Below the pieces are notes generated by a model that was given only the letters and a program-made list of their open reading frames with translations, had not been told where the DNA came from and made no database searches. A DNA stretch of 18,206 bases from Opitutales bacterium. GTDB lineage: Bacteria > Verrucomicrobiota > Verrucomicrobiia > Opitutales > UBA953. Shown here piece by piece: positions 1 to 17,413 of the stretch (position 1 is its first letter; every line of letters starts with the position of its first letter). The stretch is taken from positions 226,969 to 245,174 of the forward strand of contig JBBAUX010000001.1 of NCBI GenBank assembly GCA_040398005.1, read 5' to 3'. A program made the translations under genes and the position numbers.

Positions 1-56
1 TCGTCGTTCAATTATTTAATATAGGTTTCAGACACAACCCCTTGCCAACGTGCCCC
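1..56. repeat. Palindromic 8-mer-arm element, copy A (truncated by window start; core inverted relative to other copies)
   Basis: 1-42 (tcgtcgttcaattatttaatataggtttcagacacaacccct) resembles the reverse complement of the cores of copies C/D; arm ccccttgccaacgtgccc is identical to the right-arm start of copies B and E. Confidence 0.8.
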
Positions 57-67
57 TTGGGGTGCGC

Positions 68-445
68 TTACCCCAATAAAAACGCAAAGGTAAAACCTAT
101 GATCCAAACCACTACGGAGAAACCGTAAATCCAGTAAGAGATTTTTCGTCCAAGGATACAGGCATCCGCTAATTTCTTATCAGCGGGGCAGGGTAGATTA
201 CGTGCCCACCATAACCACATGCCGCCAAAGACTAATAAAATACCAGAAATACTAAAAACGAGTGGTTTATGTTCGGAGATCCAGATGAGTTGTGGAAAGC
301 GACTCAGAGTGGATGCAATCGTGGCGCCGAGACCTAACGAAACTAAGAGCGCAGGAATCGCACAACAAATGAGCGTTGAGGCCGAGGTAAAAAGCGTCAG
401 GAAGGGAACGCCTAAAGCCTGAATCCAATTTTGGAAACGGCTCAT
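68..445 (-). CDS. MerT-like heavy-metal transport membrane protein
   Basis: 125 aa, about three hydrophobic helices, CC pair in first helix (LICCAIPALLVSLGLGA) and a second Cys pair (PCPAD...AC); ATGA overlap with upstream HMA gene. Confidence 0.75.
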   Translation of the reverse strand: MSRFQNWIQALGVPFLTLFTSASTLICCAIPALLVSLGLGATIASTLSRFPQLIWISEHKPLVFSISGILLVFGGMWLWWARNLPCPADKKLADACILGRKISYWIYGFSVVVWIIGFTFAFLLG

Positions 446-1008
446 GGGGTGCTCTTTTTTAATTTATCTTTTACGGTGTCGAATGAATCTTTGGGGTACG
501 TAATTGCGCGTAAATTAAAGCCGGCATCTGTGACAATTTGTTTCGTTTTTTCTTCGGGGAGCTTTTGTCCTTCCTTTAATTGAAGCAGAACAGCCTTCGC
601 AGAGAGATTAACGTAAACAGCCGAAACCTCAGGGAGTTTGGTGAAGGTCTTGGTGATATTACTCGCGCAGAAATTACAGACTAATCCGTCGACCGTTAAT
701 TGAACTACGGCACCAGATTGAGATGGGACAGCTGCGGGTGCGTAGGGTTTATCTTCTTTGCTCGGATTATTAATTTTTTCTAAAAACTTTTTAGGGTCGG
801 CATCGAAATCTTTACGGCATTCCTTACAGCAGAGTTTGATTTCTTGATTTTCAAAAATGAAAACAACGGGCTTACCCATGGTACCAAGTTTTTCATCAGA
901 GACGATGCAGGTATCGAGAGGGTAAGGTTTTACGCCTGCAGGGAGTTTGTCGTCCGCCTGACAGATCAGACAGAGACTGGTGATAATGAGAGCGAATAGT
1001 TTTTTCAT
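442..1008 (-). CDS. Exported metal-binding protein, YHS/TRASH-like domain fused to an HMA (MerP/CopZ-like) domain
   Basis: Start moved to ATG at 1008 (MKKLFALII signal peptide, removes overlap with upstream gene); CIVSDEKLG...LCCKECRKDF motif, then GLVCNFC CxxC HMA motif. Confidence 0.8.
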   Translation of the reverse strand: MKKLFALIITSLCLICQADDKLPAGVKPYPLDTCIVSDEKLGTMGKPVVFIFENQEIKLCCKECRKDFDADPKKFLEKINNPSKEDKPYAPAAVPSQSGAVVQLTVDGLVCNFCASNITKTFTKLPEVSAVYVNLSAKAVLLQLKEGQKLPEEKTKQIVTDAGFNLRAITYPKDSFDTVKDKLKKSTP

Positions 1009-1012
1009 AAGT

Positions 1013-1657
1013 TTAGAAAAGTAAGCGAACACCCGCTTCGGCGTGGGTGCCGTGGTCGGAAATCATCACTCGTAATTCGAGCAATAGGTCTTCGTGCATC
1101 AGTATAAGTGATGGGCCATGGGCAAATCCAACCCCGGCACCGTTCTCATGTTGCACGGTGTAGTAAATCCAGGGTGCCCATTCATCGTATTCGGCTAACC
1201 AAGGTGCCCAGCCACCCATGAGCGTGCTCACGAGGCGACTGGCGGAAGGGACAAAGACGGCCTGCTCTTGGAGCATGATATGCCAGCTACGGTTTTCCCA
1301 GTCGGCCAAGAATGATACTGTGCCTGCCCAGCCTTCACGACTGCCTGCTCGACCTCGTCCAATACCTGCTCCGACAATGATATTCGCCTGAGAGTCTTCT
1401 GTATTCCACCTTTTGAGAAGTTGATTCACGATCGCCGCTTCGACTTGGATACTTTCCCCCTCACCGGTGTTAAAATAATATCCACCAAAACCCACGGAGC
1501 GAAAGCCGGTAAAGCTGCGACCTATTTCGGTGTACGAAAAAGTGTGACCATACTCCGCCTTCAGGAAGTTAATTCCAGGTGCCGAAATCATCTGCGCCTT
1601 AAGGCTTATGCTCATGAAAAGCACTCCGATTAAGATGGATAAAAATGACTTAACCAT
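1013..1657 (-). CDS. Hypothetical exported protein, probable outer-membrane beta-barrel
   Basis: 214 aa, signal peptide, aromatic/Gly-rich alternating strands, C-terminal Phe (AEAGVRLLF); ends 4 nt before the HMA gene start. Confidence 0.6.
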   Translation of the reverse strand: MVKSFLSILIGVLFMSISLKAQMISAPGINFLKAEYGHTFSYTEIGRSFTGFRSVGFGGYYFNTGEGESIQVEAAIVNQLLKRWNTEDSQANIIVGAGIGRGRAGSREGWAGTVSFLADWENRSWHIMLQEQAVFVPSASRLVSTLMGGWAPWLAEYDEWAPWIYYTVQHENGAGVGFAHGPSLILMHEDLLLELRVMISDHGTHAEAGVRLLF

Positions 1658-1738
1658 AATTTTAACGATGTTTTTTTTAGGGCTAATGTCAAATGGTTTT
1701 GCAAATAATAAGCGTTACTGACTCACTCGTTTGTCTCA

Positions 1739-2449
1739 ATGCGCACCCTAATCCTATTTCCTCTCATGGTTCTGATGGGTCGGGCCGAAAATACCGCGAC
1801 CACTCCAGTCCCTAAAGAGAAGAGTGGCTGGTTGGCTCATCACGAATCAATTAATGCCAAGGCCAAGCAGGGTGGAATCGATTTAGTTTATATCGGAGAC
1901 TCCATCGTCCAACAGTTTGAAACAAAAGGTAAAGAGGTCTGGGACTATTATTACGCCCCGCGTCGCACTCTCAACTTAGGCATCAGCGGCGACCGCACGC
2001 AACATGTGCTCTGGCGAATCGACCACGGTAATCTCGACGGTGTTAAGCCCAAGCTCACTATCATTATGATTGGTCAGAATAATGGAGGACACAACACCTC
2101 CCAAGAAATCGCCGAAGGGGTCACGGCTGTCGTTCAGCGCGTGCAGGCCAAATGTCCCGAATCCAAAATCCTTCTCTTAGCGATTTTTCAACGACGTCCC
2201 CAAATCACTCCCGAGCGTGCGGTCTTGGACGAAGCGAATGCGACCATTGCAAAACTCGCGGACAATAAAATTATTCATTATCTAAATATAAATTCAGTTT
2301 TCGTGAAACCCGATGGATCGATACCGGCTGACCTTATGCCTGACTTCGAACATCCCAGCCCACTCGGAAACAAAGTCTGGGCCGAAGCCATCGAACCCAA
2401 AGTCGCCGAATTGTTTGGAGATAAATCACTACCGCCGTTAAAGCGGTAG
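1739..2449 (+). CDS. SGNH/GDSL hydrolase (PAF-acetylhydrolase IB-like)
   Basis: Motifs YIGDSI, NLGISGDRTQHVLWRI, IGQNN, DFEHP; N-terminal signal peptide. Confidence 0.9.
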   Translation: MRTLILFPLMVLMGRAENTATTPVPKEKSGWLAHHESINAKAKQGGIDLVYIGDSIVQQFETKGKEVWDYYYAPRRTLNLGISGDRTQHVLWRIDHGNLDGVKPKLTIIMIGQNNGGHNTSQEIAEGVTAVVQRVQAKCPESKILLLAIFQRRPQITPERAVLDEANATIAKLADNKIIHYLNINSVFVKPDGSIPADLMPDFEHPSPLGNKVWAEAIEPKVAELFGDKSLPPLKR

Positions 2450-2450
2450 T

Positions 2451-2624
2451 GAGGGGACAAGGTGACACGGGGACAAGGTGACAAGGGGTAGTGTATTATT
2501 TTTTAATAAATTAGAGGAGCGACTTAGTCGCGAATACTTCTCCCCTTGCCAACGTGCCCACTTGCCCACGTGTCCCCTCGTAGCCATAGGCCACGTTACG
2601 TGTCACCTTGCCCACGTGTCCCCT
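2451..2624. repeat. Palindromic 8-mer-arm element, copy B
   Basis: Left arm 2451-2488 (gag + gggacaag gtgacacg gggacaag gtgacaag + ggg), core 2489-2541, right arm 2542-2579 (28/38 match to reverse complement of left arm by hand alignment), then a gtagcc hairpin and three more 8-mers. Confidence 0.92.
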
Positions 2625-2638
2625 AAGCTGTACCAATT

Positions 2639-2667
2639 AAAAAGGCTCGAGTTGCCTCGAGCCTTTT
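2639..2667. terminator. Bidirectional Rho-independent terminator
   Basis: aaaaaggctcgag-ttgc-ctcgagcctttt: perfect stem with A/T tracts on both sides, between convergent genes. Confidence 0.85.
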
Positions 2668-2689
2668 GGACTTAATTTTTTAGTACAGC

Positions 2690-3136
2690 TTACTGCTTAG
2701 CAGGTTTTGCGGGCTTACCAGAATCGGAACCTGAACCAGCACTCTTATTCTTACCAGAACCTGCGCGCTCTTTGTCTGCTTTGGCCGCTTTATCAGCAGC
2801 GTCGGCGAGTCCAGGATTAGCTTTAGTCACAGCAGCCTTTTGAGCTTCCGCGAGGTTACATTGAGCTTCAGAAACAGCTTTGTCGTCCGTACCAGCTTTC
2901 GCGGCATCAAGTGCAGCTTGAGCAGCAGCTACTGCAGGATCGCTGGCAGAAGCTTTGCGGGCTTCGAGTAATTGCTTCCATTCAGTTTCTGAAACTCCTT
3001 CAGGAGCTTTAGGGGCCTTATGTTTTTTCTTTTCACCTTTGGGAGGTGGATTGCCAGGAGGATTTTCAGGTGGCTGATTGGCATAGAGTGAGCCAACCGA
3101 AACCAAGAGAGCGAGGAGGAGGATTTTGGATTTCAT
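2690..3136 (-). CDS. Secreted Ala/Lys/Pro-rich hypothetical protein (148 aa)
   Basis: Start moved to ATG at 3136 (MKSKILLLALLVSVGSLYA signal peptide); the longer ORF-track start runs through repeat copy C. Confidence 0.75.
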   Translation of the reverse strand: MKSKILLLALLVSVGSLYANQPPENPPGNPPPKGEKKKHKAPKAPEGVSETEWKQLLEARKASASDPAVAAAQAALDAAKAGTDDKAVSEAQCNLAEAQKAAVTKANPGLADAADKAAKADKERAGSGKNKSAGSGSDSGKPAKPAKQ

Positions 3137-3197
3137 AGTAATGTATGGGGTTGCATGTATAGTACCCCGGTAATTTTGGGAAGTTGCACTGAAGTTT

Positions 3198-3423
3198 AGG
3201 GGACAAGGTGACACGGGGACAAGGAGCGCGAGCATAGCTCGCGAGGGGACAAGCTGGCACGGGGACAAGGTGACAAGGGGTAGTGTAAAAACCTATTATA
3301 AAATAGATAACGACGAAGTCGTTGAGAAATATTCCCCATGTCCCCGTGTCACCTTGCCCACGTGTCCCCTCGTAGCCATCGGCTACGTCACGTGCCCACT
3401 CGTAGCCAAAGGCTACGTCACGT
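3198..3423. repeat. Palindromic 8-mer-arm element, copy C, with accessory hairpins
   Basis: Left arm 3198-3280 containing cgcgagc-ata-gctcgcg (3227-3243), core 3281-3333, right arm 3334-3371, then a 30-nt tandem repeat (3361-3390, 3391-3420) carrying cgtagcc-nnn-ggctacg hairpins. Confidence 0.92.
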
Positions 3424-3432
3424 CCTAACACC

Positions 3433-3573
3433 CTAAGCGTCCTTACCTGATTTCGGATCAGAATCTTCGCGGTCTTCCCTGTAACTTTTCTTGAATCCCT
3501 GCAACGCAGCAAAAAACGCGATACCAAAGAGCACGGAGATGAAGAGCGCGAAATAAGGTACGTACTCAGTCAT
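3433..3573 (-). CDS. Small single-pass membrane protein (46 aa), not in the ORF track
   Basis: Hand translation MTEYVPYFALFISVLFGIAFFAALQGFKKSYREDREDSDPKSGKDA*; ATG overlaps the upstream stop (ATGACTGA); one TM helix plus charged tail. Confidence 0.7.
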   Translation of the reverse strand: MTEYVPYFALFISVLFGIAFFAALQGFKKSYREDREDSDPKSGKDA

Positions 3574-3751
3574 CTTTGGAGTTTCCGATCGCTTTTAAGT
3601 AGATACCGAAAGCGAGGATGGAGGGGGCCCAAAGCCCGACAAAAATGGCATCCTCCTTATGACCGTTCCAGTAAAGTATCTTCGAGAAGATGATGACCAG
3701 GAAAGAAGCAATAAACAGAAGTTTATCAGTTAAGGTGAACTTGTTGAACAT
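3566..3751 (-). CDS. Small two-helix membrane protein (61 aa)
   Basis: Start moved to ATG at 3751 (MFNKFTLTDKLL...), because the ORF-track start lies inside the upstream terminator; two hydrophobic segments, FVGLWAPSILAFG motif. Confidence 0.7.
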   Translation of the reverse strand: MFNKFTLTDKLLFIASFLVIIFSKILYWNGHKEDAIFVGLWAPSILAFGIYLKAIGNSKDD

Positions 3752-3821
3752 GTGCAAGGGGTGATGAAGTTTTAATCTAATCGTAGCTCGCTCGGAGTCA
3801 AATGGTGAAAGACTTCTTTTG

Positions 3822-3860
3822 AAAACAAAAAGCCCCGTCACTTTTGGTGACAGGGCTTTG
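3822..3860 (-). terminator. Rho-independent terminator of the fasciclin gene
   Basis: Minus strand caaagccctgtcac-caaaa-gtgacggggctttttgttttc, about 20 nt after the stop codon. Confidence 0.85.
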
Positions 3861-3880
3861 TTCGACTTGGCTTAAACTAA

Positions 3881-4288
3881 TTAGGCAGGAAGCAGTACGC
3901 TGTCGATGACGTGGATCACACCATTGCTGGTAGCTACGTCTGCGATAACGACATGGGCGCCGTTGATCTTCACCTTGCCGTCGGCAATGGTGATGGTGAT
4001 TTCGCCGCCATTGACGGTCTTGGCTTTCATACCGTTACTCAGGTCAGTCGACATAACCTTACCGGCCACAACGTGGTAGGTGAGGATGCTGGTTAACTTA
4101 CCTTTGTTTTCGGGCTTCACTAGGGATTCCACAGTGCCGGCAGGCAGCGCTGCGAAAGCAGCGTCGACTGGAGCGAACACGGTGAACGGACCAGGTCCGC
4201 TGAGGGTTGAGACTAAATCAGCTGCAGTAACTGCGGCGACCAGAGTCTTGAATGAGCCATTATTTACGGCGGTTTCTACGATGTTCAT
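3881..4288 (-). CDS. Fasciclin (FAS1) domain protein
   Basis: H1 motif [20 protein letters not shown]2 motif [13 protein letters not shown]; no signal peptide evident. Confidence 0.95.
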
Positions 4289-4506
4289 TTTTTTATTTTT
4301 GGTTTATTGGGTTAGGGAAAAGGAGTACCTAGACGGTATATAACTTTTTGAAATCTACGAAAAACGACGGTTAAATCACTTAGCGGCAGACGGTCGTTTT
4401 AAGGCGAACTTTGTCTAGGCACGTCGTTTATTTGTAATGTCAAAATATCAGAGACGATTTATTCTTCTCGTCACATGTCAGGCACAACTTTGGTAATTAA
4501 AGATCA

Positions 4507-4648
4507 GGGGGCTGGGAGCGCGAGCAAAGCTCGCGAGGGGACAAGGTGACAAGGGGTAATGTCTAAAACCTATTATAAAATAGATAATGACGAAGTCGTT
4601 GAGAAATATTCCCCGTGTCCCCGTGTCACCTTGCCCACGTGTCCCCTC
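4507..4648. repeat. Palindromic 8-mer-arm element, copy D
   Basis: cgcgagc-aaa-gctcgcg hairpin (4519-4535), short left arm, core 4557-4610 nearly identical to copy C core, right arm ending cccctc. Confidence 0.92.
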
Positions 4649-4661
4649 AATTAAATCCTAT

Positions 4662-4713
4662 CTGGCGGAGAGAGAGGGATTGATTTCGCTTCGCTCCAGG
4701 GCTTCGCCCCAAT
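4662..4713 (-). repeat. tRNA-Ser 3'-end duplicate with truncated RtT-like repeat
   Basis: 52 nt identical to 4862-4913; includes tggcggagagagagggatt, the reverse complement of the last 19 nt of tRNA-Ser including CCA. Confidence 0.9.
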
Positions 4714-4722
4714 TAAAGATCA

Positions 4723-4848
4723 GGGGATGAGGTGACACGGTGACAAGGTGACACGGGGTAGTGTATAACTTATATTTAAATAGAGGAGCGACTTTGTCGC
4801 TTAGACTCAACCCCTTGCCAACGTGCCCACTTGCCAACGTGCCCCCTC
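4723..4848. repeat. Palindromic 8-mer-arm element, copy E
   Basis: Left arm of gtgacacg/gtgacaag units, core 4759-4810 similar to copy B core (tagaggagcgac-ttt-gtcgct), right arm cttgccaa cgtgccca cttgccaa cgtgcccc ctc. Confidence 0.92.
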
Positions 4849-4862
4849 AATTAGATACTACC

Positions 4863-4967
4863 TGGCGGAGAGAGAGGGATTGATTTCGCTTCGCTCCAGG
4901 GCTTCGCCCCAATCCTGAAGGATTGTCTGTTCGCCTTTGGCTCACCGAACCCGGGTTCTCATCCCTC
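4863..4967 (-). repeat. RtT-like tRNA-linked repeat ending in a copy of the tRNA-Ser 3' end
   Basis: Minus strand GAGGGATGAGAACCCGGGTTCG...GCGAAGCGAAATCAATCCCTCTCTCTCCGCCA; same layout (GGATGAGAA...GGTTCG...AATCC + tRNA end) as I recall for the E. coli RtT repeat; closing stem gagggat/atccctc and internal hairpins. Confidence 0.75.
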
Positions 4968-4994
4968 ATTAGAGCTCGGCTTGAAATATCCATC

Positions 4995-5082
4995 TGGCGG
5001 AGAGAGAGGGATTCGAACCCTCGGTACCTTGCGGTACACTGCATTTCCAATGCAGCGCGATCGACCACTCTGCCATCTCTCC
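4995..5082 (-). tRNA. tRNA-Ser (anticodon GGA)
   Basis: 88 nt GGAGAGATGGCAGAGTGGTCGATCGCG-CTGCA TT GGA AA TGCAG-long variable arm-GAGGGTTCGAATCCCTC-TCTCTCCGCCA; encoded CCA. Confidence 0.97.
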
Positions 5083-5103
5083 TAATTACCAGATAGAAAG
5101 TTC

Positions 5104-5131
5104 ATCAAACCTTGTCCCCTAAACTCGTCAA
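5104..5131 (-). promoter_or_regulatory. Probable sigma70-type promoter of tRNA-Ser
   Basis: TTGACG (5131-5126) with a weak -10-like TTTGAT 16 nt downstream, about 20 nt before the tRNA. Confidence 0.45.
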
Positions 5132-5170
5132 GGGGAATGAGGCTTGGTCCTATAATCTATTAAAACTTGG

Positions 5171-6838
5171 CTATTTGACCACCTGCTTGGCCCAGGAGTC
5201 TTTCAGGGTCACAGTGCGATTAAAAATCGGCTTCTGCGGCGTAGATTCTTTATCCACGCAGAAGTATCCGGTGCGTTCAAATTGAACGCGACTGCCTTGA
5301 GTTAATTTTAAAAGGGCAGGCTCAACTTTTCCACGGATGACCTGTATGGAATTTGGATTTAAATATTTTCTCCAATCATCGTCCTCCGCTAAATCATTCA
5401 AATTCTCATGCATGAAGAGGCGATCATACAGACGTACTTCCACATCGCCTGCGTGTTCTGCACTCACCCAATGAATGGTGCCTTTGACTTTTCTACCATC
5501 CGCTGAATCGCCACCCTTGGTCGCCGGATCGTATGTGCAGTGAACTTCAGTGACCTTACCGGTCTCATCTTTCACGCAATGCGTGCAGGTTACGTAGTAA
5601 GCCCAGCGAAGGCGAACCTCTTGGCCAGGTGTCAGACGGAAGTATTTCTTCGGTGCTTCCTCAATGAAGTCATCACGCTCGATTAAAAGGGTCTTGGAGA
5701 AGGGCACAACACGTGAACCCGCCGCTGGGTCTTCCGGATTGTTCTGCGCTTCAAGATTCTCGGTCTGACCTTCAGGATAATTGGTAATGATTAACTTAAT
5801 GGGATCGAGCACCGCCATGAACCGGGGCGAGGTCTTATTTAAATCGTCACGCACTGCGTGTTCGAGCAAGGCGACGTCGCTGAGGGAGTTGTGCTTGGTG
5901 ACGCCAATGACTTCACAGAATTTACGAATACTGCAAGAACTGTAGCCGCGACGACGAAGACCCGAGATGGTTGGCATACGTGGATCGTCCCAACCGCCCA
6001 CGTGTTTCTCGTTAACGAGTTCAAGTAACTTACGCTTCGATAAAACGGTGTAGGTGATGTTCAACCGCGCGAACTCAATCTGTTGTGGTTTAGCGGGTGT
6101 ATTAACAGTGTTGATTACCCAATCGTAAAAGGGACGGTGCTTCTCAAATTCAAGAGTGCAGATAGAATGGGTAATGCCTTCGTAAGCGTCTTCAAGAGGG
6201 TGGGCGTAATCGTACATGGGGTACACGCACCACTTATTACCGGTGTTATGGTGTTCGACTTTACGAATACGATAAATGACTGGGTCACGCATGTATTCAT
6301 TGGTCGCAGCCATATCGATTTTCGCCCGTAAAACGGCCTTACCTTCATCGAACTCACCCCGCGTCATTTTATCAAACGCCGCTAAATTTTCTTCAACACT
6401 CGTACCACGGGTTGGACTGTTCTTACCTGGTGTTTTGAAATCGCCTTTTTGCAAACGCATTTCATCGAGCGATAAATAACAGACGAATGCCTTACCTAAT
6501 TTGATGAGCTTGATGGCATCCGCATGCATGCGATCGAAATAGTCAGAAGCTTGATGGTAGTGCTCATTCCATTCAGCACCTAACCAGCGTACGTCCTCTT
6601 TGATGGAGTCCACGTATTCAATTTCTTCTTTAGTCGGATTGGTGTCATCCATCCGTAGGTTAAACTGACCGTTAAACTCGGTCGCTAAGCCAGAATTTAG
6701 GCAGATAGACTTCGCATGACCGATATGCAGGTAGCCATTGGGCTCAGGGGGAAAACGCGTGATAATTTTCTGATGCTTACCCGAGGCGATATCGGCATCG
6801 ATGATCTGCTGGATGAAATGGCGAGGGGTATCGGACAT
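5171..6838 (-). CDS. glnS: Glutamine--tRNA ligase
   Basis: RFPPEPNGYLHIGHAKS, YPMYDYAH, VLSKRKL, GWDDPRMPT, C-terminal QFERTGYF...FNRTVTLKD. Confidence 0.97.
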   Translation of the reverse strand: MSDTPRHFIQQIIDADIASGKHQKIITRFPPEPNGYLHIGHAKSICLNSGLATEFNGQFNLRMDDTNPTKEEIEYVDSIKEDVRWLGAEWNEHYHQASDYFDRMHADAIKLIKLGKAFVCYLSLDEMRLQKGDFKTPGKNSPTRGTSVEENLAAFDKMTRGEFDEGKAVLRAKIDMAATNEYMRDPVIYRIRKVEHHNTGNKWCVYPMYDYAHPLEDAYEGITHSICTLEFEKHRPFYDWVINTVNTPAKPQQIEFARLNITYTVLSKRKLLELVNEKHVGGWDDPRMPTISGLRRRGYSSCSIRKFCEVIGVTKHNSLSDVALLEHAVRDDLNKTSPRFMAVLDPIKLIITNYPEGQTENLEAQNNPEDPAAGSRVVPFSKTLLIERDDFIEEAPKKYFRLTPGQEVRLRWAYYVTCTHCVKDETGKVTEVHCTYDPATKGGDSADGRKVKGTIHWVSAEHAGDVEVRLYDRLFMHENLNDLAEDDDWRKYLNPNSIQVIRGKVEPALLKLTQGSRVQFERTGYFCVDKESTPQKPIFNRTVTLKDSWAKQVVK

Positions 6839-6844
6839 CGTTAA

Positions 6845-8209
6845 TTAAGCGATGAAGGATTGAAGTCGGGCTAAGGTCAAATCGCGACCGAGGGCATGTA
6901 ATACACCGATTAAATGGGCTCCGCCGCCCTGGCCTGACACCGCAAAGCGCACAGGCGCAAAGAAGTCAGTGGGCTTGCGACTATGTTCAGCCCCCGCGGC
7001 ATTAAAGGCGGCTTCAATCGCAGCTACATTCCATTCGATGGACTGAAGGTGAACTAAAATCTCACGCACGCGAGCAGTCGGCTCTCCACCCTTTTTTGTG
7101 AGGTTCGCGAAAGCGGCTTCGTCTTTTTTGAAATCGTTATTGAAGAAGAAACCCACGAACTCAGGAAGGTGCTCCAGCGAATTAACTTTTTCTTGAATAA
7201 TGGAAAGCACTTCAGCGAGTCGGGCATCCGAAACATTATCATTCAGAACTTGAGCATTTTGCAGAATCGGTTTGGCAATCGCCACAAACTCCGAAGAGGG
7301 CAGGGCACGCAGAGTTTGTGCATTGATGTGCGACATTTTCTTTTCATCAAAACGTGCGTTCGATTGGTGAATCGCTTTGAGTTCGAATTGTTTGATGATT
7401 TCGTCAATCGGTAGAATCTCTTTTCCGTCCGCAGGGGTCCAACCGAGTAAGCAGAGATAATTACGCACCGCTGAAGGCAGGTAGTTTTTGTTTTGATACT
7501 CTTCGATGAGAGCACCGCGGTCGCGTTTGGACATTTTACCGGGTCCATCGGTCTTTAAAATGAGAGGAATATGGGCGTATTCAGGAGGTTTTACACCGAA
7601 GGCCTTAAAGATTTCGAGGTGCTTCGAGGTATTGGAAAGGTGGTCTTCACCACGAATCACGTGCGTGATTTTCATTTCAATATCGTCGACCACATTAACG
7701 AAGTGAAAGACGGGTTCGCCGTTAGAGCGGAAGAGAACGAAGTCACGATCTTCGGCTCGTTCGACGCGACCACGGACTAAGTCATCGAGCACCATCGGTG
7801 CGGCGTCTACTTTTTCGATTTCTTTCTTTAAGTGATCATCAAAAACCGTGGAGCGTTTTCCTTCGAGACGTAACCACCAAGCGCCATCTTTCTCGTAGGC
7901 TTTACCGAGTTGAATGAGTTCTTGGAGTTTCGCTTTATAAAGTTCGGTGCGTTGAGACTGAAAGTAGGGACCGTAGTTACCGCCGATATCAGGACCTTCA
8001 TCCCAATCCATGCCCAGCCAGCGAAGAGAATCTAAAATGACTTTAAGGTAAGCTTCGGAGTTACGTTCTTTATCGGTATCTTCGATCCGCAGAATAAATT
8101 TTCCACCCGTGTGACGTGCGTAGAGCCAATTGAATAAAGCCGTACGTGCGCTTCCGATGTGGAAGAAGCCAGTGGGACTGGGAGCAAAGCGTACGCGGAC
8201 AGAGGACAT
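6845..8209 (-). CDS. gltX: Glutamate--tRNA ligase
   Basis: VRVRFAPSPTG-FFHIGSARTALFN, LRIEDTD, THVIRGEDH, KMSKR. Confidence 0.97.
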   Translation of the reverse strand: MSSVRVRFAPSPTGFFHIGSARTALFNWLYARHTGGKFILRIEDTDKERNSEAYLKVILDSLRWLGMDWDEGPDIGGNYGPYFQSQRTELYKAKLQELIQLGKAYEKDGAWWLRLEGKRSTVFDDHLKKEIEKVDAAPMVLDDLVRGRVERAEDRDFVLFRSNGEPVFHFVNVVDDIEMKITHVIRGEDHLSNTSKHLEIFKAFGVKPPEYAHIPLILKTDGPGKMSKRDRGALIEEYQNKNYLPSAVRNYLCLLGWTPADGKEILPIDEIIKQFELKAIHQSNARFDEKKMSHINAQTLRALPSSEFVAIAKPILQNAQVLNDNVSDARLAEVLSIIQEKVNSLEHLPEFVGFFFNNDFKKDEAAFANLTKKGGEPTARVREILVHLQSIEWNVAAIEAAFNAAGAEHSRKPTDFFAPVRFAVSGQGGGAHLIGVLHALGRDLTLARLQSFIA

Positions 8210-8231
8210 GGGTGTAACTCGACTAAAGAAC

Positions 8232-9830
8232 TTATTGAGCTTGAGGCTCAGGCGCTGAGGTGAGGTCTTTCAGCAATCCCATGCCCATAAAATAGGCATT
8301 TCGTGAGGTAAAACGTTCCGCTAACTGCTTCACTTCCTCGGACGATGCATCGATTTGTGGGCGATCTGATTTGATAATGTGGATATAAACCGTGTCACCC
8401 GTGGTCGTTTGAATTCCGGATACGATTTTACCAGCGCCAGCGACTTCGAGTGACTGAGCGGTATTTTCGCTCACGCCCGTAAGGTTTGCTGGTAGATTGG
8501 CGGTGGTGAAGGGGGCAAGCTGACTTACCTTGAGTCCCAAGGATCCAGCACTGTCGGCGAAGTTTTTATTTTCCGCGGCCGAAGCCTTCATCGCTTTACT
8601 GATTTTAAATACTTCATCGCGCATGAGACGCAGACGTTCGTCGCGCTTCCAATTCGCAGTCGCATTATCTTTAACTTCATTGAAGTCAGGAATACGTGAA
8701 TCGATTCGCTTTTTAAGAATCAGGAAAACGGCTGCATCGTCGGAGCGATACATATCGGTGCGCCATTCTTTTTCGGATAGTTCACCCGCGGCCTTGAGGG
8801 CTTCGATCGGAACGCTAGCGAGTTCGGGCGGATTGGTGCTGTCAAAAGCGGCTAGAGTTTCGAGGGTCGCGTTTTGTTTTTTGAGCCAGGCGGTGAAAGC
8901 GGGCTCGTCGGACTTATGAGTGTCGACCGGGAATTGATCAGCGAGTTCTTCGCCTACTATTCCAGCGAGGTTACGGATGGCACGATTGGTGCGAATCATT
9001 TTTTCAATTTCGGAGCGACGGGCCAGAGCTTGTTCACGTATTTTACCTGGCTCAAATTTCAGTTTTTCGGCGACATTAAAGCCTTCCATGACGATATCGT
9101 CCTCACTCACCGGTGAGCTATCAGGCGTGAGATTTTTGAATGAAACGAGGGAGACTTCAACTTTCGCAGGTAAGCGGTAGCTCTCTTTGTTGGTTTCGAA
9201 ACTCGATTTTACTTTGGCTTCGTCGACGGTGACGGCGGGATTGAACTTCGTGTTATCGAAGGTGGCGACTTCAACAGTCCAGATGGTTTTTTCACGCTGG
9301 AGGACGCGTTGTAATTGTGAAGTGGTGACGTGTCCTGGGCCTGAGAGAATTTGAACGGCTTTGTTGACGCGCCAAGCATTGCGAATAAAAGTTTCAAACC
9401 GGGCAAGGGTGTCTACTTCCGAAGCATTGAGTTGTTTCGAAGCGACTTCGACGAATTTAATAAGTCCAGAGGCAGATTCTTTGCCGTCAGTCGGCGTGGT
9501 AATCGCCGTAGCGATTTTACGCACTTCGTTATCGGAGGGTTGCGGAATGCCCAGAGTATCGGCGACGTGGATTTCGGCGACGTATTGGGTGAGGCTTTGA
9601 CCCTCGACGCGTTGTCCGCTGATGGTGGTGAAGACAATCAGGTCGCGATAGCTGTTTTGAACCTTCGGGCTATTGAGGTCGACCCCGAGGTAAATACGGG
9701 CGTTGGCGCCCACTTGACCAATTGAATTGCCCCCTGTCATGAAAACAAGTGAGGCAACGCCACTTAAAATAAGTATAGCTTTAATTAATTTGTGGTGCCT
9801 GTCGGTGATTGGTCGGAGCCAAGAAATCAT
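8232..9830 (-). CDS. SurA/PpiD-like membrane-anchored periplasmic chaperone (divergent)
   Basis: N-terminal MISW...TM anchor, PSDNEV, FETNKESYRLPAKVEVSLVSF and PDFNEVKD segments resemble PpiD-family repeats. Confidence 0.65.
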   Translation of the reverse strand: MISWLRPITDRHHKLIKAILILSGVASLVFMTGGNSIGQVGANARIYLGVDLNSPKVQNSYRDLIVFTTISGQRVEGQSLTQYVAEIHVADTLGIPQPSDNEVRKIATAITTPTDGKESASGLIKFVEVASKQLNASEVDTLARFETFIRNAWRVNKAVQILSGPGHVTTSQLQRVLQREKTIWTVEVATFDNTKFNPAVTVDEAKVKSSFETNKESYRLPAKVEVSLVSFKNLTPDSSPVSEDDIVMEGFNVAEKLKFEPGKIREQALARRSEIEKMIRTNRAIRNLAGIVGEELADQFPVDTHKSDEPAFTAWLKKQNATLETLAAFDSTNPPELASVPIEALKAAGELSEKEWRTDMYRSDDAAVFLILKKRIDSRIPDFNEVKDNATANWKRDERLRLMRDEVFKISKAMKASAAENKNFADSAGSLGLKVSQLAPFTTANLPANLTGVSENTAQSLEVAGAGKIVSGIQTTTGDTVYIHIIKSDRPQIDASSEEVKQLAERFTSRNAYFMGMGLLKDLTSAPEPQAQ

Positions 9831-9925
9831 AGCCTCACCTTGGTTAGCGATTTGGTGCCTGTCAATCAGTCGAGAAGACCTTGGCTTACGCTTGCAGGGA
9901 CTTGGGTTTTCTTTACGGTTTCGGG

Positions 9926-10417
9926 GTGCCTAAGCCCATACATTGCATCGTAGCCGTTGCTCAAAATGGGGTTATTGGGCGCGAGGGGCGTTTGCCTTGG
10001 CATATTCCAGAGGACTTGGAATGGTTCACCGATCAGACGGTCGGTGGGGTGATGATTGAGGGTCCGGCCTGTTATCAAGAACTGGGTAAGGCACTCGGTG
10101 GTCGCGGCACCGTGGTCGTTTCGCGCGATGAGAAAAAAGTTTTCCCCGGTGCAACGCGGGCTAGTAATTTAGTTTCGGCGATTGCGGAAGCCGAAAAATT
10201 ACCGTGGTCGGGCCCCACGTGGATAACGGGAGGGGAAAGAATTTACGCCGAAGGTTTAGCCCATTGTTCCAAACTTTACATTACGCGCATTCATCAAGAT
10301 TTTTCGGGCGACCGAACTTTTCCGAAAGATTGGCCAAAAACTTTTACCCGTTTGGTCTGGTCGAAAGAAAGTCGCCAACCCGATTTAAGTTATACGTTTG
10401 AAATCTGGGAACGCTGA
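9926..10417 (+). CDS. folA: Dihydrofolate reductase
   Basis: IVAVAQNGVIG.EGRLPWHIPEDL.WF, ITGGERIY, LYITRI, GDRTFP; GTG start at 9926 gives a typical 163 aa length. Confidence 0.9.
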   Translation: MPKPIHCIVAVAQNGVIGREGRLPWHIPEDLEWFTDQTVGGVMIEGPACYQELGKALGGRGTVVVSRDEKKVFPGATRASNLVSAIAEAEKLPWSGPTWITGGERIYAEGLAHCSKLYITRIHQDFSGDRTFPKDWPKTFTRLVWSKESRQPDLSYTFEIWER

Positions 10418-10425
10418 ATACGGTC

Positions 10426-10453
10426 AATTAACCTGTGTATTAAGGGTTAATTT
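10426..10453 (+). terminator. Possible weak terminator/hairpin after folA
   Basis: aattaacc...ggttaatt inverted repeat 8 nt after the stop; AT-rich, short T tail. Confidence 0.3.
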
Positions 10454-10461
10454 AGATTAGT

Positions 10462-10490
10462 TTGACTCACCTGAAATCGCTTCATTATCT
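10462..10490 (+). promoter_or_regulatory. Probable promoter of tRNA-Arg
   Basis: TTGACT at 10462-10467, weak -10-like TTATCT 17 nt later, 10 nt before the tRNA. Confidence 0.4.
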
Positions 10491-10500
10491 CTTCCATAAC

Positions 10501-10575
10501 GCTCTCGTATTTCAATGGATAGAATGCTGGCCTCCGAAGCCGGCGATTTGGGTTCGACTCCCAACGGGGGCACCA
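10501..10575 (+). tRNA. tRNA-Arg (anticodon CCG)
   Basis: GCTCTCG/CGGGGGC acceptor, CTGGC CT CCG AA GCCGG anticodon arm, TTGGG TTCGACT CCCAA T-arm, A20 identity base, encoded CCA. Confidence 0.95.
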
Positions 10576-10584
10576 CTTTAAGGT

Positions 10585-11835
10585 TTATTTTTCCAACTCG
10601 TGGCTCGCGGCTTTGCCAATCCAACTGAGCACGCCTATTCCAATTAAAGCATAAGCGCACGCCGAGGTTAAAAGCGTCGGGCGCATGCCCCAGACATCGG
10701 CTAAGACTGAGGTGACCATGCCGGCGAAGGGAAGCAGTCCTAAGAAACTTAAGCTGGCGACCGCGGAAACGCGTCCCCGAATTTCTTCGGGCGCACGTTC
10801 TTGAATGACGATATTGCTAATGCCAATGAGTGTAGAAACGCCCAAGGCTAAGCAGACGAGCGATCCCGCTGCCCAAAGAAAAATATCCGCTTGGCTTAAA
10901 CTAAGGAGCGCTGTGCAAATTAAGGTAACCGCCAAAATAATTAAATTAGGACGCCACTTGTGCTTAACGAACGGCACCGCAATCGAACCGGTGAGTGAGC
11001 CGAGACCTGAACTCAACATCAATAAACCGAGTTGTTGAGGTTCTAGCTGTAAAGTGTACTTGGCGTAAAGGGGGAGCAGAATAATCATCACGGGAAAAAC
11101 AAACACCGTGTTCGTCGCCATCAGTAAAATCATGGCGAAGCTGGGCCGATCATTGAACACGTGACGAAAACCTTCTCCGATTCCGTGTTTACGTTTTTCT
11201 TCCTGAGCTACTGTGCCTTTCGCTCGTTTAGGTAGAGTCAGCAGGGCAATCATCAAGGCCAGAAACGAAAGTGCATTAATATAATAAGCGAAGGAGGCGC
11301 CGTAGTGGCCCACAATAAATCCGGCCAAGGCTGGGCCGATTAAGCGTGTGCCGTGAAAGACCGCCCGATCAAAAGCAACCGCTTTGGCAACGTTGGCTCG
11401 CCCCACTAATTCGGGCACAATGGCCGACGCCGCAGGCATTTCAAAGGCACCCGATATTCCCAATAAAAATGAAGCGAGGATAATATGCCAAATTTGAATA
11501 TCTCCTTGGGCCACTAAATAACCTAAAAGCAGGGAGAAGAAAATTTGAACCACTTGGCAGATTTGAAGTATGTAACGTTTGTCATATTTATCTGCATACA
11601 GTCCGCCAATCATCGAAAGCGCCAGAACGGGAAGACCGCCTGCCAAATTTACCCAGCCGACCATGACCGCGCTCGTCGTAAGACCGACCACAACCCAACT
11701 GTGCGCCATGGCCTGCATCCAGGTGCCGGTCATCGAAATGGCTTCACCTATAATATAGCGCGTGAACGCAGCATTCGGGAACGGGGCAGACTCTTTCGAA
11801 TTCTCCGTTGCGGGTACTGGGTCGGCTTCATGCAT
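10585..11835 (-). CDS. MFS transporter (MFS_3/EntS-like)
   Basis: About 12 hydrophobic helices, SMTGTWMQ, motif A GGLYADKYDKR, LIGPALAG, PEEIRGRV; start ATG 11835 or TTG 11844. Confidence 0.92.
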   Translation of the reverse strand: MHEADPVPATENSKESAPFPNAAFTRYIIGEAISMTGTWMQAMAHSWVVVGLTTSAVMVGWVNLAGGLPVLALSMIGGLYADKYDKRYILQICQVVQIFFSLLLGYLVAQGDIQIWHIILASFLLGISGAFEMPAASAIVPELVGRANVAKAVAFDRAVFHGTRLIGPALAGFIVGHYGASFAYYINALSFLALMIALLTLPKRAKGTVAQEEKRKHGIGEGFRHVFNDRPSFAMILLMATNTVFVFPVMIILLPLYAKYTLQLEPQQLGLLMLSSGLGSLTGSIAVPFVKHKWRPNLIILAVTLICTALLSLSQADIFLWAAGSLVCLALGVSTLIGISNIVIQERAPEEIRGRVSAVASLSFLGLLPFAGMVTSVLADVWGMRPTLLTSACAYALIGIGVLSWIGKAASHELEK

Positions 11836-11882
11836 TTCCTGCAAGTAAGCCGATGTGACTGGGGGGGCAATCTAAACTTCGC

Positions 11883-12590
11883 TTATTTTGCAGCTGGGTC
11901 GCTGGCCTTCCACGCTTTATCGACGACTGGGCGGACTAATTTAACAATTTCAGCATATCCCTTGGGGTTAGCATGCATTGCACTATCACCTTCCTCGCGG
12001 TAAAGAGTGGCGATAGCTTCACCGGTGGCGGTATTCATCACTTTATTGTGATCAACGAAGTAGAGATTTTTTCCAGTCGCACAGTATTTTTCAAGAAGCT
12101 CATTGAATTTATCAAATTCTGCCCAGTGGGGCTTGCGTTTGGGTGATTTAAGTCCGGCCATAATCACAAATCCAGCTTTCGGATTTTCTTTACGTAGTCG
12201 CTCAATGTATTGACGGATATTTTCAATCACATCTTCTGCTTTACTGCCACCAGCGAGATCATTGGTTCCAGCAAAATAAATCACCACACGAGGATGATAG
12301 GGCAAAGCGAGACGATCCATGGTCGAGAGGACTTCAGTGGTTTTGGATCCACCGAATCCACGATTAATCACCGGGTAGGGTTTGAAGTCCTCAGTACCGC
12401 TCACCCAATATCGCGCTGAGCTTGAGCCTGCGATGAGTAGGGCATTCTGGGGAGGAGGAGTCACTTTGTCCTGCTCAACAAATTTTGCGATATCAGCAGC
12501 GTAGCGATCTTTTCCGCTGACCTTGGTAGCTGTTTCTTGCGCACCAAGCCAGGGCGCTATGAAAAGGAGTAAGTAAGTAAATAATTTCAT
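11883..12590 (-). CDS. Exported SGNH/GDSL hydrolase
   Basis: AGSSSARYW, INRGFGGS, FAGTNDL, MHAN.KGY; signal peptide. Confidence 0.88.
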   Translation of the reverse strand: MKLFTYLLLFIAPWLGAQETATKVSGKDRYAADIAKFVEQDKVTPPPQNALLIAGSSSARYWVSGTEDFKPYPVINRGFGGSKTTEVLSTMDRLALPYHPRVVIYFAGTNDLAGGSKAEDVIENIRQYIERLRKENPKAGFVIMAGLKSPKRKPHWAEFDKFNELLEKYCATGKNLYFVDHNKVMNTATGEAIATLYREEGDSAMHANPKGYAEIVKLVRPVVDKAWKASDPAAK

Positions 12591-12648
12591 GGAAAGCGCT
12601 AAGTTGGGGCTGGAATATAAACCTTAAGTTTTTATAAGACAATAACGT

Positions 12649-13095
12649 ATGCCCAATGTTCCTGGATTAAGAAGCCCTTATGAGACAACTCACGGATTCG
12701 TCTACTTTCCGCGGATGCTCGATAAAATAAAACTGCATGCCGAAGGAAAACTCCACCCCGACTTTATCAATAATCTCGGTAAAGCTTTTGATGATCGGTG
12801 CTGTCAGTATTTAGGCGTGCCTTACGAAGAACTTAAAAACTGGGTACTCGCAAATCTACACGCTTCGAATGAGGACGCCTTGACCTGGGCCCAATCGCGT
12901 GGACGAAAACTATCATCCAACGATATCGATATTTGGAATTCTTTTATGACCAAGCGCGGTTGGCGCGATGAGGCGAATGAAACCTTATTACGTCGCCTTA
13001 AGGAAAACGGACTCAGTGCCGACGCCGGAGTCGATACGATGTTTGATTATATCGAAGTCGATGAAGGACGTGCTCCGCGCGGAAAAGCACTCTAA
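12649..13095 (+). CDS. DUF5069-like domain protein
   Basis: LRSPYE...YFPRMLDKIKLHAEGKL...FDDRCC.YLGV, C-terminal FDYIEVDEGR; family recognised from memory. Confidence 0.75.
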   Translation: MPNVPGLRSPYETTHGFVYFPRMLDKIKLHAEGKLHPDFINNLGKAFDDRCCQYLGVPYEELKNWVLANLHASNEDALTWAQSRGRKLSSNDIDIWNSFMTKRGWRDEANETLLRRLKENGLSADAGVDTMFDYIEVDEGRAPRGKAL

Positions 13096-13103
13096 TTTTT
13101 ATC

Positions 13104-14066
13104 TCAGGCGAAGTGTCCGAAGCCCCGACTGGTGATCACCGCACCATCGGTTCGAGATTTAATTATACCAGTTCCTTGGCTGACGACTCCGATATTTTTA
13201 ATTGGGGTCTGAGGAAATTGTTTCTTAAAATTCGCTTCAAGTAAATCGGCCTGTTGGGCTTGGACACTAAATAGTAATTCATAATCTTCGCCGTCTTGTA
13301 AGGCATGTTCGACGGCTGGTTTGCCGTCAGCTTTTGATAGTTGATGAGCCGCATCAGAAATCGGAAGTAACGCTAAGTCGATAACGGCATCCTGAGTGCG
13401 ATTTATAAGCCCATGCAGGTCTTTGGCCATGCCATCCGATAAATCGGTACAGGCGGTTACCATGCTTTGCGCGTTCAGCCATTCACCTTCGGCGAGACGT
13501 GGCTCAAAATTTAAATGATGTCCGGTAATGGATCCACCGAGTTTTCCGGTCACAAAAATAACGTCTCCATTATTCGCTGTCTTTCTCGTTAAAATTCGAT
13601 GCGCAAAACCTTGTACCGCTAACGTTGCTGCAAACGTGCCGGCCTGAACGCGACAAAGATCACCCCCGACACAATGGAGTCCGAATTGATGCGAAGCTTT
13701 GCCGACGCCACGGGCAAAGTCTTCGAGCCACTCGCTGTCCACATCAGGGCCCACTAATAAAGAAAGTAATGCATCGCTCGGAATGGCGCCCGCTGCCGCT
13801 AAATCGCTGAGATTTCTATTCACTAACTTGGCTCCGGCTATTGCTCCGGCGGTAGATGAATCAAAATGTCTACCAAGGATGACGGAGTCGACCGTGCTCA
13901 CCCGAAATTTTCTAGCCACTGTTTCTTCAAAGATCGCGCAGTCTCCGCCGGGTCCAGCCGGGAAGGGTGGACAGGCCTGACCCAGGTTAGCGGTAACCCG
14001 ACGAATAATTTCTTCTTCGGTGAGTTGTCCGATACTCCGGCTTGGCTGACTGGTGATGGCACCCAT
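13104..14066 (-). CDS. thiL: Thiamine-monophosphate kinase
   Basis: NLSDLAAAGA, VGGD, VTGKLG, DLSDG, GEDYELLF, C-terminal GFGHF; ATG at 14066 avoids overlap with the upstream gene. Confidence 0.93.
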   Translation of the reverse strand: MGAITSQPSRSIGQLTEEEIIRRVTANLGQACPPFPAGPGGDCAIFEETVARKFRVSTVDSVILGRHFDSSTAGAIAGAKLVNRNLSDLAAAGAIPSDALLSLLVGPDVDSEWLEDFARGVGKASHQFGLHCVGGDLCRVQAGTFAATLAVQGFAHRILTRKTANNGDVIFVTGKLGGSITGHHLNFEPRLAEGEWLNAQSMVTACTDLSDGMAKDLHGLINRTQDAVIDLALLPISDAAHQLSKADGKPAVEHALQDGEDYELLFSVQAQQADLLEANFKKQFPQTPIKNIGVVSQGTGIIKSRTDGAVITSRGFGHFA

Positions 14067-14073
14067 TCGTAAA

Positions 14074-15009
14074 TTATAACTGGCTAGAGGCATTTGGCGC
14101 TAAATAAAGCCAAATGAAAGTATGCAAATTAAAGAGAGCGTGTAACGCGATGCAGGTGAAGAGACCGAATCGATCACGAATAATACAGAGTACTGAGCCA
14201 AAAGCCATCAGCGGGAAGACGGCGGCGAGATTGCCGTGTACCACGCCGAAAAATACTCCCGTAATGATCATCGCATAACCGCGAGGTAACCATCGTTTTA
14301 GAGAAGGATAAATCATTCCGCGAAACACCAACTCTTCCATAATCGGAGCGCCAATCACGCAGCTAATTCCCAGAAAAACTATCGGACTGATTGGCCCGCT
14401 CCAGTCGTATTTCGCAATAAAATCTACGAGCGGTTGGATATCCTTAGGGAGAGGCTGGCCGGACTGTTCGCTTAAATAGTAAAACAATTTCCAAACTAAG
14501 CCCGCACAGAGGGCGATGGCACAGAGACTGAAAAATTTTTGCCAAAGGCTACGTAAGTCAAAGCTTTGCCAGGCAGACTTGATATCATCGGAAAAGGTTT
14601 GAACGGGAAGTTGAGGTGCTTCGTTTAAGCTGGCTGATGGAGCAAAGCGTAGTGAGCCAGGGCAAAGATACGCGAAGGTAGCTAAAGTAATTGCACCTAA
14701 AATCTGTCCAATAAGTTGCGCAAAATAGATCGCAGTATCGCCTTCGGTGAAAATAATTTTTAAACCAGGAATTAAGCTGCCTGGAATAATTGAAACATAG
14801 ATAAAGAAACTGATTAAACCAAAGAGACCATAGATGGCCTGAGATGAGTTCTGTAGTTCGCTGGGTTGCTCTTCTCCATAGTGGATGGTGCCTTTGCGAA
14901 ACATCGCGAGACCCACGAGGAAAAGGATTCCGATCCAAGCAAAGTAGGCGTAGTCTAAATTACTTAAAACCACTTCCTCGTTCAACTCGGCTGAGGCCAA
15001 AAAAATCAT
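14074..15009 (-). CDS. CPBP family (CAAX/Abi) intramembrane glutamic endopeptidase
   Basis: EELVFRG, FFGVVH, HALFN motifs in a polytopic membrane protein. Confidence 0.9.
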   Translation of the reverse strand: MIFLASAELNEEVVLSNLDYAYFAWIGILFLVGLAMFRKGTIHYGEEQPSELQNSSQAIYGLFGLISFFIYVSIIPGSLIPGLKIIFTEGDTAIYFAQLIGQILGAITLATFAYLCPGSLRFAPSASLNEAPQLPVQTFSDDIKSAWQSFDLRSLWQKFFSLCAIALCAGLVWKLFYYLSEQSGQPLPKDIQPLVDFIAKYDWSGPISPIVFLGISCVIGAPIMEELVFRGMIYPSLKRWLPRGYAMIITGVFFGVVHGNLAAVFPLMAFGSVLCIIRDRFGLFTCIALHALFNLHTFIWLYLAPNASSQL

Positions 15010-15011
15010 AG

Positions 15012-17248: not shown

Positions 17249-17413
17249 ACGTTTTATTCCGGTGGCTCTAACAGTGGGCTAGAACCATTGGAAAAGTGAG
17301 ACAGGTGAGGGGGGTGGCAAGAAAGAATCGATGAATGCCCAAATTTTCGTTTAAACCCTCAAAAAATGGGCATCTGGCTGGACTGTCGGAATGGGTTAAT
17401 TAAGTTGCTGGGT

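Follow-up and report, generated by a model that had tools for sequence, protein, structure and literature searches.

Tandem-repeat arms at the joints of a variable tRNA island in a freshwater Opitutales genome

Introduction

Small free-living genomes with almost no mobile enzymes can still have very variable gene sets, and the locus described here shows one route to such variability at the population level: a dispersed repeat tied to a four-helix-bundle protein family marks joints where genes come and go. The locus lies in an 18,206-nucleotide stretch of DNA from an Opitutales bacterium (contig JBBAUX010000001.1, positions 226,969 to 245,174; this whole stretch is called the window), whose genome, G000, is 1.44 Mb long and 94% complete. 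An earlier note on this DNA had seen five palindromic elements between genes downstream of tRNA-Ser and had proposed that they are recombination sites of an integron-analogous system that builds up cargo next to the tRNA. Here we describe the identity, dispersal and polarity of the repeat arms that make up these elements, together with the mosaic make-up of the cores, the gain and loss of arms, and rearrangements that have at least one end in an arm. Judging from sequence, the elements are probably non-autonomous copies, without a gene, of the arms that flank a four-helix-bundle cassette of the intervening sequence (IVS)/S23p type as inverted tandem repeats. We also consider it likely that they form a dispersed selfish mosaic repeat whose secondary effect, in an additive tRNA island, is to supply portable homology and sites of breakage. 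Below, C numbers denote contigs of G000, G numbers other than G000 its relatives, and L numbers the compared loci or contigs.

Several described systems resemble this locus in part. IVSs of 23S rRNA that bear an open reading frame (ORF), as in Coxiella and Leptospira (S23p/PF05635/TIGR02436), likewise have a four-helix-bundle ORF in a loop closed by terminal inverted repeats, and in Coxiella short tandem repeats (heptamers) lie ahead of the ORF (PMC4990558). In G000, however, the gene-bearing copy lies between two protein genes, the window copies have no ORF, and arms occur at 45 sites. Neisserial mosaic elements (dRS3 plus RS) have been proposed to promote recombination with incoming DNA, and minimal mobile elements are differing whole-gene cassettes placed between conserved genes via homologous recombination (PMC3898611). 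Short conserved repeats, exchangeable cores and clustered arrays are common to these elements and ours, but the sequences are unrelated, the octamer arms are tandem, and the associated gene encodes a four-helix-bundle protein, where the neisserial elements are linked to a phage integrase. Additive flexible tRNA islands are similar in having variable cassette sets at a tRNA, 3′-end repeats and an integrase island in one allele (PMC4898812), whereas cargo in G000 is bounded by arms and the tRNA 3′-end repeats are confined to the first 350 bp. Repetitive extragenic palindromes (REPs), their paired form (REPINs) and bacterial interspersed mosaic elements are extragenic, 3′-biased, hairpin-forming doublets that are gained and lost (PMC3116915), and a GTAG-tagged REP is nested in many arm copies. 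The arms of G000, in contrast, are tandem arrays and not short palindromes, singlets dominate, and no cognate REP-associated tyrosine transposase (RAYT) was found.

The arms also recall integrons in forming gene-plus-one-site units and same-polarity arrays and in re-ordering at sites. Integrons and clusters of attC sites lacking integrases (CALIN) are defined by IntI, attC with paired boxes, and co-oriented single-gene cassettes each with its site. G000 has neither attC boxes nor IntI, its sites lie beside housekeeping genes and are dispensable, and the island genes are not co-oriented (SGNH hydrolase on the + strand, the others on the − strand) and include multi-gene blocks. In cyanobacteria, Elhai et al. 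reportedly described in 2008 short tandemly repeated repetitive (STRR) arrays with inserted mini-hairpins of 17-25 nt, known as small dispersed repeats; the arms of G000 differ in their mixed units, fixed number of 3-5 units, facing pairs and Opitutales host. By analogy, the elements would work like Neisseria mosaic elements in an additive tRNA island; by the features tested, they are neither an integron nor a REPIN.

Architecture of the elements

The arm is built from an 8-nt unit, G[GT][GT]G[AG]CA[ACT], in 3-5 tandem copies; a typical arm has four units and then a G-rich tail. What had been taken for single palindromes are instead composite: an element consists of one or two facing arms around an exchangeable core, with inserted mini-hairpins. 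In the window the cores are AT-rich, 52-53 nt long and hold a mini-hairpin, B and E having one common type and C and D another. The elements are:

1..56, − strand, element A: core and short right arm; the left arm follows tRNA-Pro(GGG) outside the window
2452..2624, no strand assigned, element B: 4-unit arm, 53-nt core with mini-hairpin, facing 4-unit arm, mini-hairpin, extra 3-unit arm; it begins 3 nt after the stop of the SGNH gene
3198..3423, no strand assigned, element C: 3-unit arm, hairpin, arm, D-type core, facing arm, two mini-hairpins
4507..4648, no strand assigned, element D: belongs, together with 4649-4710, to a 216-bp duplication unit common to E
4723..4848, no strand assigned, element E: B-type core

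A three-unit pattern matches 13 times in the window, all in 2453-4846, and not once in 200 shuffles. Elements B-E are intergenic and related, as the earlier note had it, and its claim that the housekeeping side is free of them also holds, no arm cluster having been found in window positions 5083-18206. Of the five elements, B-E stand where they had been placed, whereas A is only the right half of an element that belongs to tRNA-Pro. This element starts 19 nt behind tRNA-Pro(GGG) (C1:226664-226740), about 230 bp before the window, and its halves are parted by a 100-N assembly gap with identical text repeated on both sides; its core has 54 nt identical to an element of the relative G090. The local 216-bp duplication is marked by a junction word at 4495 and 4711.

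Folded as RNA, either strand of elements B, C and D is much more stable than shuffled sequence (z −4.0 to −8.0), E folds weakly (z −1.0 and −2.5), and the two single arms tested do not fold (z about −0.3). At variable positions, agreement between facing arms is lower than in permuted pairs for gene-less elements (0.31 versus 0.43; 16 pairs) and higher for gene-bearing copies (0.79 versus 0.63; 8 pairs, which are kin and not independent). Such mismatch in gene-less elements is not what selection for a recombination stem would leave; the same result would follow from asymmetry in a few founders. Neither strand of any of the five elements contains a pair of attC R″/R′ boxes, and in an Rfam scan the two tRNAs were the only matches at gathering score.

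Arms around a four-helix-bundle gene

The earlier note had listed four-helix-bundle proteins among the neighbours to look for, and this lead proved right. The sole PF05635/TIGR02436 gene of G000 (C1:214680-215090) lies 12 kb from the window between facing arms of the octamer unit, and octamer arms also flank its seven closest full homologues (64-73% identical). More distant four-helix-bundle clades have inverted arrays of other 6-9-nt units, their own cognate repeats; inverted flanks exceed 100 shuffles at 24 of 27 testable loci (3 of 30 being too short). The flanks seen of gene-bearing and dispersed copies are all protein or tRNA genes, none of them 23S rRNA.

The home site of the gene, between a HAD phosphatase and an aminotransferase, could be followed in 22 genomes. 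The gene is forward in four and inverted between the arms in two; an arm remnant with a REP is left in at least four (G099, G090, G008, G096 and similar), and in three the element is absent, leaving a gap of 43-44 bp. In one, G094 (L249), a gene-less palindrome of a different octamer replaces the element. The protein matches no catalytic family. Its nearest solved relative, 2GSC, has five chains and is a homopentamer (PMC4990558). In the literature, with subscription journals mostly uncovered, we found no description of four-helix-bundle genes with dispersed tandem-repeat arms.

The mixed-unit arm occurs in all 24 genomes of the genus and in none of 16 from other families; by their titles, matching records come from freshwater Opitutales. 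Pure one-unit arrays occur in cyanobacteria and others, among them arrays of one G000-type octamer in filamentous cyanobacteria. Four-helix-bundle genes lie within 700 bp of pure arrays at none of 35 named loci from other phyla, versus 3 of 45 Verrucomicrobiota loci. A check for phage carriage gave three matching viral contigs, each a pure one-unit array.

Distribution of arms in the genome

G000 carries 83 arms in 45 clusters, 37 of them in a single orientation and 8 in both. Even scatter across the genome, which by the earlier note would have refuted its reading, was not seen: clusters are clumped, with 19 of 35 neighbour gaps at most 3 kb (simulation mean 3.9, maximum 12). They adjoin genes for ribonucleotide reductase, enolase, phosphoglycerate mutase, lpxC, dapB and ruvA as well as accessory genes, and tRNA-Ser does not anchor the family as had been thought. 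Among 15 relatives with tRNA-Ser(GGA) in the same orientation behind glnS, arms follow this tRNA in four, all from the small-genome clade.

Most arms sit just behind the 3′ ends of genes or tRNAs. Of 18 single-orientation clusters that lie between co-directional genes, 17 have their G-rich strand in the transcription sense. Clusters favour convergent gaps (16 of 40 clusters as computed, 15 after hand correction of element C, versus 80 of 589 gaps) and avoid divergent ones (3 of 40 versus 167 of 589). A sense arm follows within 200 nt at 6 of 36 tRNA/tmRNA genes, including all four tRNA-Ser genes, versus 33 of 1221 ORFs. Replichore polarity was considered and set aside: arm orientation matches the local GC skew in 30 of 37 single-orientation clusters, but three of four conflicts between skew and gene direction follow the gene.

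Gene turnover at the arms

Because element A follows tRNA-Pro just outside the window, the region is bounded by two converging tRNAs, tRNA-Pro(GGG) and tRNA-Ser(GGA), and this 5.2-kb interval is a hypervariable island. It holds a three-gene metal block, an SGNH hydrolase gene, a gene for a secreted protein, two genes for small membrane proteins and a fasciclin gene (listed in the last section). Relatives were compared together with 17 close metagenome contigs, taken from 22 examined of 30 returned, several of which share one assembly.

G087 (93% mean identity to G000; 88% complete) has a B/C hybrid element and no secreted protein, G090 (95% complete) and L175 have one B/E hybrid element between SGNH and tRNA, and in G009 the order is SGNH, element, secreted protein, element, tRNA. 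The 148-aa secreted protein is absent at this site in G087, G090, L175 and L191. The metal block is present, absent, or moved behind SGNH in relatives, and in L182 it has moved inside the facing arm pair, where L170/171, L174 and L189 have 2, 3 and 6 other genes, respectively. Two lake assemblies skip element C entirely, joining 3179 to 3434 with both neighbours kept (marked 'between: not known'), and a joint from 4493 to 4710 was also seen at the element D duplication. L176 and L181 are arm-free alleles with the gene order kept. At the junction of SGNH and secreted protein, 14 records (L170 and L171 counted once) have arms in 8, the GTAG REP alone in 4 and nothing in 2; of the 8 records with the secreted protein beside the tRNA end, 3 have nothing between.

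Events of the same kind occur outside the island. Genomes differ by a gene together with a single arm at three loci, C5:120.6 kb, C1:105 kb and C2:174 kb, and cargo is swapped at a fourth. At C1:104776-106347 (L003:5776-7347) tandem prepilin-type paralogues each have an arm after them, and G087 and G090 each retain a different one. Comparison of filled and empty alleles by eye shows 30-45 flanking bases replaced and no clean target-site duplication. Joints that run backwards, as excised circles would give, lie among repeats in the contigs.

The expectation that blocks are gained or lost at element boundaries is partly borne out in close relatives, with changes enriched at arm-bearing intervals. 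Among 966 gap-free intervals common to G000 and G087, with a change defined as a length difference of at least 300 bp, the strict test finds changes in 5 of 13 arm-bearing versus 12 of 411 open arm-free intervals (p 6e-5). This test compares a single pair of genomes, and G087 lacks the region richest in arms. When the two changed intervals of the window are set aside, 3 of 11 arm-bearing intervals changed (p=0.005); a looser criterion gives 24 of 411 arm-free intervals and p 0.03, and the odds ratio for changes at arms is 6-21 by criterion. Against exclusive use of the boundaries, most changes (12 of 17, strict) lie at arm-free sites, and both arm-free gaps of the island break too: loss of the metal block has one end in the arm-free gap before SGNH, and loss of the fasciclin block, which recurs in G087, X5 and X6 from separate assemblies, has one end at 3818-3822. 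Cargo is not tied to the elements throughout, since SGNH, secreted protein and tRNA-Ser are adjacent without any arm in 2 of the 14 records, an outcome that the earlier note had named as refuting its reading. The elements delimit cassettes in part.

The island is also variable on its own. One allele has an integrase island, L177:2547-7706, in which a tyrosine-integrase island lies at the 3′ end of tRNA-Ser(GGA) with a duplicated end of about 35 bp and DUF805 and restriction-type genes; its DUF805 gene is related (69% at the DNA level) to cargo between arms in L170. Relatives without arms at the tRNA-Ser site have different neighbours there.

Mechanism and alternative explanations

We suggest that arms pile up in an island that is already flexible and then serve as portable homology and break-prone joints. 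Cargo would enter by ordinary routes, with trimming and shuffling at the arms afterwards. Where two copies lie in direct orientation, recombination or break repair by the host could delete, duplicate or swap the DNA between them; where they are inverted, it could invert that DNA, and one-ended events could anchor foreign DNA at an arm. Hairpin-forming arm pairs may be break-prone, and mismatched pairs and one-ended events would then be favoured. Arrival at new sites might occur by gene conversion copying, or by an RNA- or transcription-coupled step aided by the four-helix-bundle protein.

Several observations weigh against this reading. Single arms of 30-45 nt are short for RecA. Two cargos that are unrelated to each other (2.3 and 4.8 kb; L174 and L189) both begin at the inner G-tail of one and the same arm, and the resident sequence persists on either side, which homology alone does not predict. 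In C8:1-25200 (L001/L002), the stretch where GC skew reaches its genome-wide peak (+0.20), all 21 arms lie on one strand, and one arm-bounded gene of this array has changed place in G090; the array also contains a rhodopsin and carotenoid cluster bounded by arms, and Fic and NYN genes. Most events are not polarised as gains or losses. Finally, G087 and G090 have polymorphic arms, yet no four-helix-bundle gene was detected in these genomes (88% and 95% complete), and the present role of the protein is therefore only a candidate one.

Some of these points would be met by a dedicated, integron-analogous capture, in which cutting or insertion is programmed to occur at the arm tail, a pentamer binds the 4-5 units and recruits a host enzyme, and gene-plus-arm arrays are built and reshuffled. 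The same-site insertions of L174 and L189, the gene-plus-one-arm units, the C8 re-ordering, the one-way arrays and the enrichment of changes at arms agree with it, as do the 57 of 83 arms with 4 or 5 units, set beside the five chains of 2GSC, and the repeat unit peculiar to each four-helix-bundle clade. Yet the enzymes are missing. G000 has only two tyrosine recombinases, whose best matches are XerC and XerD; IntI was not found (TIGR02249 gave 117 and 138 bits, its cut-off being 265), serine recombinase, IS110, GxxExxY and reverse transcriptase had no match in the 94% complete G000, and there is no cognate transposase among the families searched, DDE families not being searched. Among 53 neighbours scanned, no enzymes lie near arms except RuvA, exonuclease VII, Fic and an NYN protein at single sites, and the sole GIY-YIG match, a 508-aa frame far from any arm, is probably UvrC. 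The protein's lack of a catalytic match, the predominance of changes at arm-free sites and the genes adjacent without arms also count against capture, and cargo occurs between direct, facing and back-to-back arms, so that there is no single cassette grammar. Dedicated capture is therefore unlikely, and, given also the absent attC boxes and the clusters beside housekeeping genes, the earlier note's reading of integron-like sites anchored at tRNA-Ser lacks support. A recombinase-free form, in which a four-helix-bundle ring binds 4-5 units and directs breakage or strand invasion to the inner G-tail, so that foreign DNA is fixed there, appears from sequence similarly improbable. If it were true, a streamlined genome without an integrase of its own would build and reshuffle same-polarity cassette arrays beside tRNAs and housekeeping genes.

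An RNA-level job, compatible with the selfish-repeat reading, is possible though doubtful: arms would serve in the protection or processing of 3′ ends of transcripts, and a facing pair would form a stem, as in the IVSs of 23S rRNA, that is an RNase III substrate or a two-way terminator. The position and orientation bias of arms, the good folding of B, C and D, the better-than-permuted match of gene-bearing arms, and the excision of the Coxiella IVS by RNase III (PMC4990558) speak for it, but the two single arms tested are unfolded and E is weak, 37 of the 45 clusters have one orientation, gene-less facing arms match poorly, and some strains have no arms at the same sites. RNA runs contain a 0.06-0.10 share of the sequence words. 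That the elements are REPINs moved by a RAYT is quite improbable. Of 14 copies of the GTAG REP, 13 have an arm within 150 bp, and this REP stands alone at the same junctions in 4 of 14 records, and the genus has short RAYT genes with GTAG-type flanks, the long ones having the REP type of C6 in G000. Elements B-E nevertheless lack the GTAG REP, the G000 RAYT is flanked by a different REP with none of its 25 copies near arms, 28 of 30 RAYT loci examined are armless, and doublets make up only 8 of 45 clusters; a search for a RAYT flanked by the arm repeat, as its partner, found none. The simpler REP- or MITE-like (miniature inverted-repeat transposable element) alternative of the earlier note came closer to the truth, but the repeats additionally take part in rearrangements. 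Finally, N gaps inside elements, several G000 contigs that end at arms, and joints marked 'between: not known' could suggest that the array and its variants are artefacts of assembling repeats from metagenomes. This is barely credible, since contigs of one possible source run span 58-3362 (with no difference) and 3343-4544, and variant junctions have unique flanks and recur in separate assemblies.

Two questions arise from the preferred reading, as a selfish mosaic repeat: what PF05635 proteins do outside rRNA, perhaps binding cognate repeats, and whether the repeats lend homology or direct insertion. With homology only, the elements would be a variant like the Neisseria intergenic mosaic elements in a new phylum; with directed insertion, a new capture mechanism.

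Other features of the island

The remaining features of the island are:

68..1657, − strand, three-gene block: 125-aa membrane protein, 196-aa HMA-domain protein (HMA E 1.7e-6) and 214-aa protein, the 125-aa and 214-aa proteins having no Pfam match
1739..2449, + strand, SGNH/GDSL hydrolase: GDSL/SGNH domain; the most constant island gene in the clade
2690..3136, − strand, secreted low-complexity protein of 148 aa: no Pfam match; own terminator-like hairpin near 2640-2666
3433..3751, − strand, two small membrane proteins of 46 and 61 aa: 91-100% identical in G087 and L191
3823..4321, − strand, fasciclin gene (3881-4288; fasciclin domain match) and terminator-like hairpin
4660..4710, − strand, truncated RtT-like unit: terminates in the tRNA-Ser 3′ end
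4860..4983, − strand, RtT-like tRNA-linked repeat: below the Rfam gathering score
4995..5082, − strand, tRNA-Ser(GGA): targeted by a tyrosine-integrase island in one related contig (L177)

Of the blocks proposed in the earlier note, the HMA, SGNH and fasciclin domains are confirmed, whereas the two 'tRNA end' blocks are not cargo and represent the tRNA-linked repeat plus the 216-bp duplication. The 3′ end of tRNA-Ser(GGA) is repeated at 4660-4681 and 4860-4881, and these repeats enclose no gene. Rfam RtT (RF00391) matches 4863-4983 over the full model (34.8 bits against a gathering score of 45, E 2.5e-4). The truncated unit plus element recurs behind tRNA-Ser(GCT) in G000 and tRNA-Ser(TGA) in G087, each with its own tRNA end; the bias of the arms towards serine tRNAs could reflect spread by recombination between tRNA-Ser ends that resemble one another.

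The left edge of the fasciclin block does not lie at any element, and distant G041 has a 93% identical fasciclin protein without arms. A plasmid origin of the block was considered and rejected, matches reaching only 60-80%. In L191:962-1284 a fasciclin gene with its 5′ end cut directly adjoins tRNA-Ser, with no arm.

The two-gene cargo at L170:6250-7475 (also in L171, L179 and L180) has a 75-bp perfect inverted repeat that starts at half a mini-hairpin inside an arm; it may be a fold-back duplication or a separate element. A 305-aa RAYT with paired REPs on both sides lies near tmRNA in C6 of G000 (L020:1044-2128), and L242 (G090 C86) has a reverse transcriptase domain within a 1998-codon open frame. 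A 6.2-kb block behind tRNA-Leu(TAA) (C1:246892-253250) is absent from G087 and has no arms at its ends. Behind tRNA-Ser(GGA), L060, L063, L065, L067 and L070 have one or two extra tRNA-Ser 3′ ends (RtT-like) without arms there. A lysine-rich short frame between tRNA-Ser and glnS occurs in G087, G090, G096 and G063 and is missing from the window (5083-5170), and in three genomes of the genus (L066, L071, L072) tRNA-Ser(GGA) is reversed relative to glnS.

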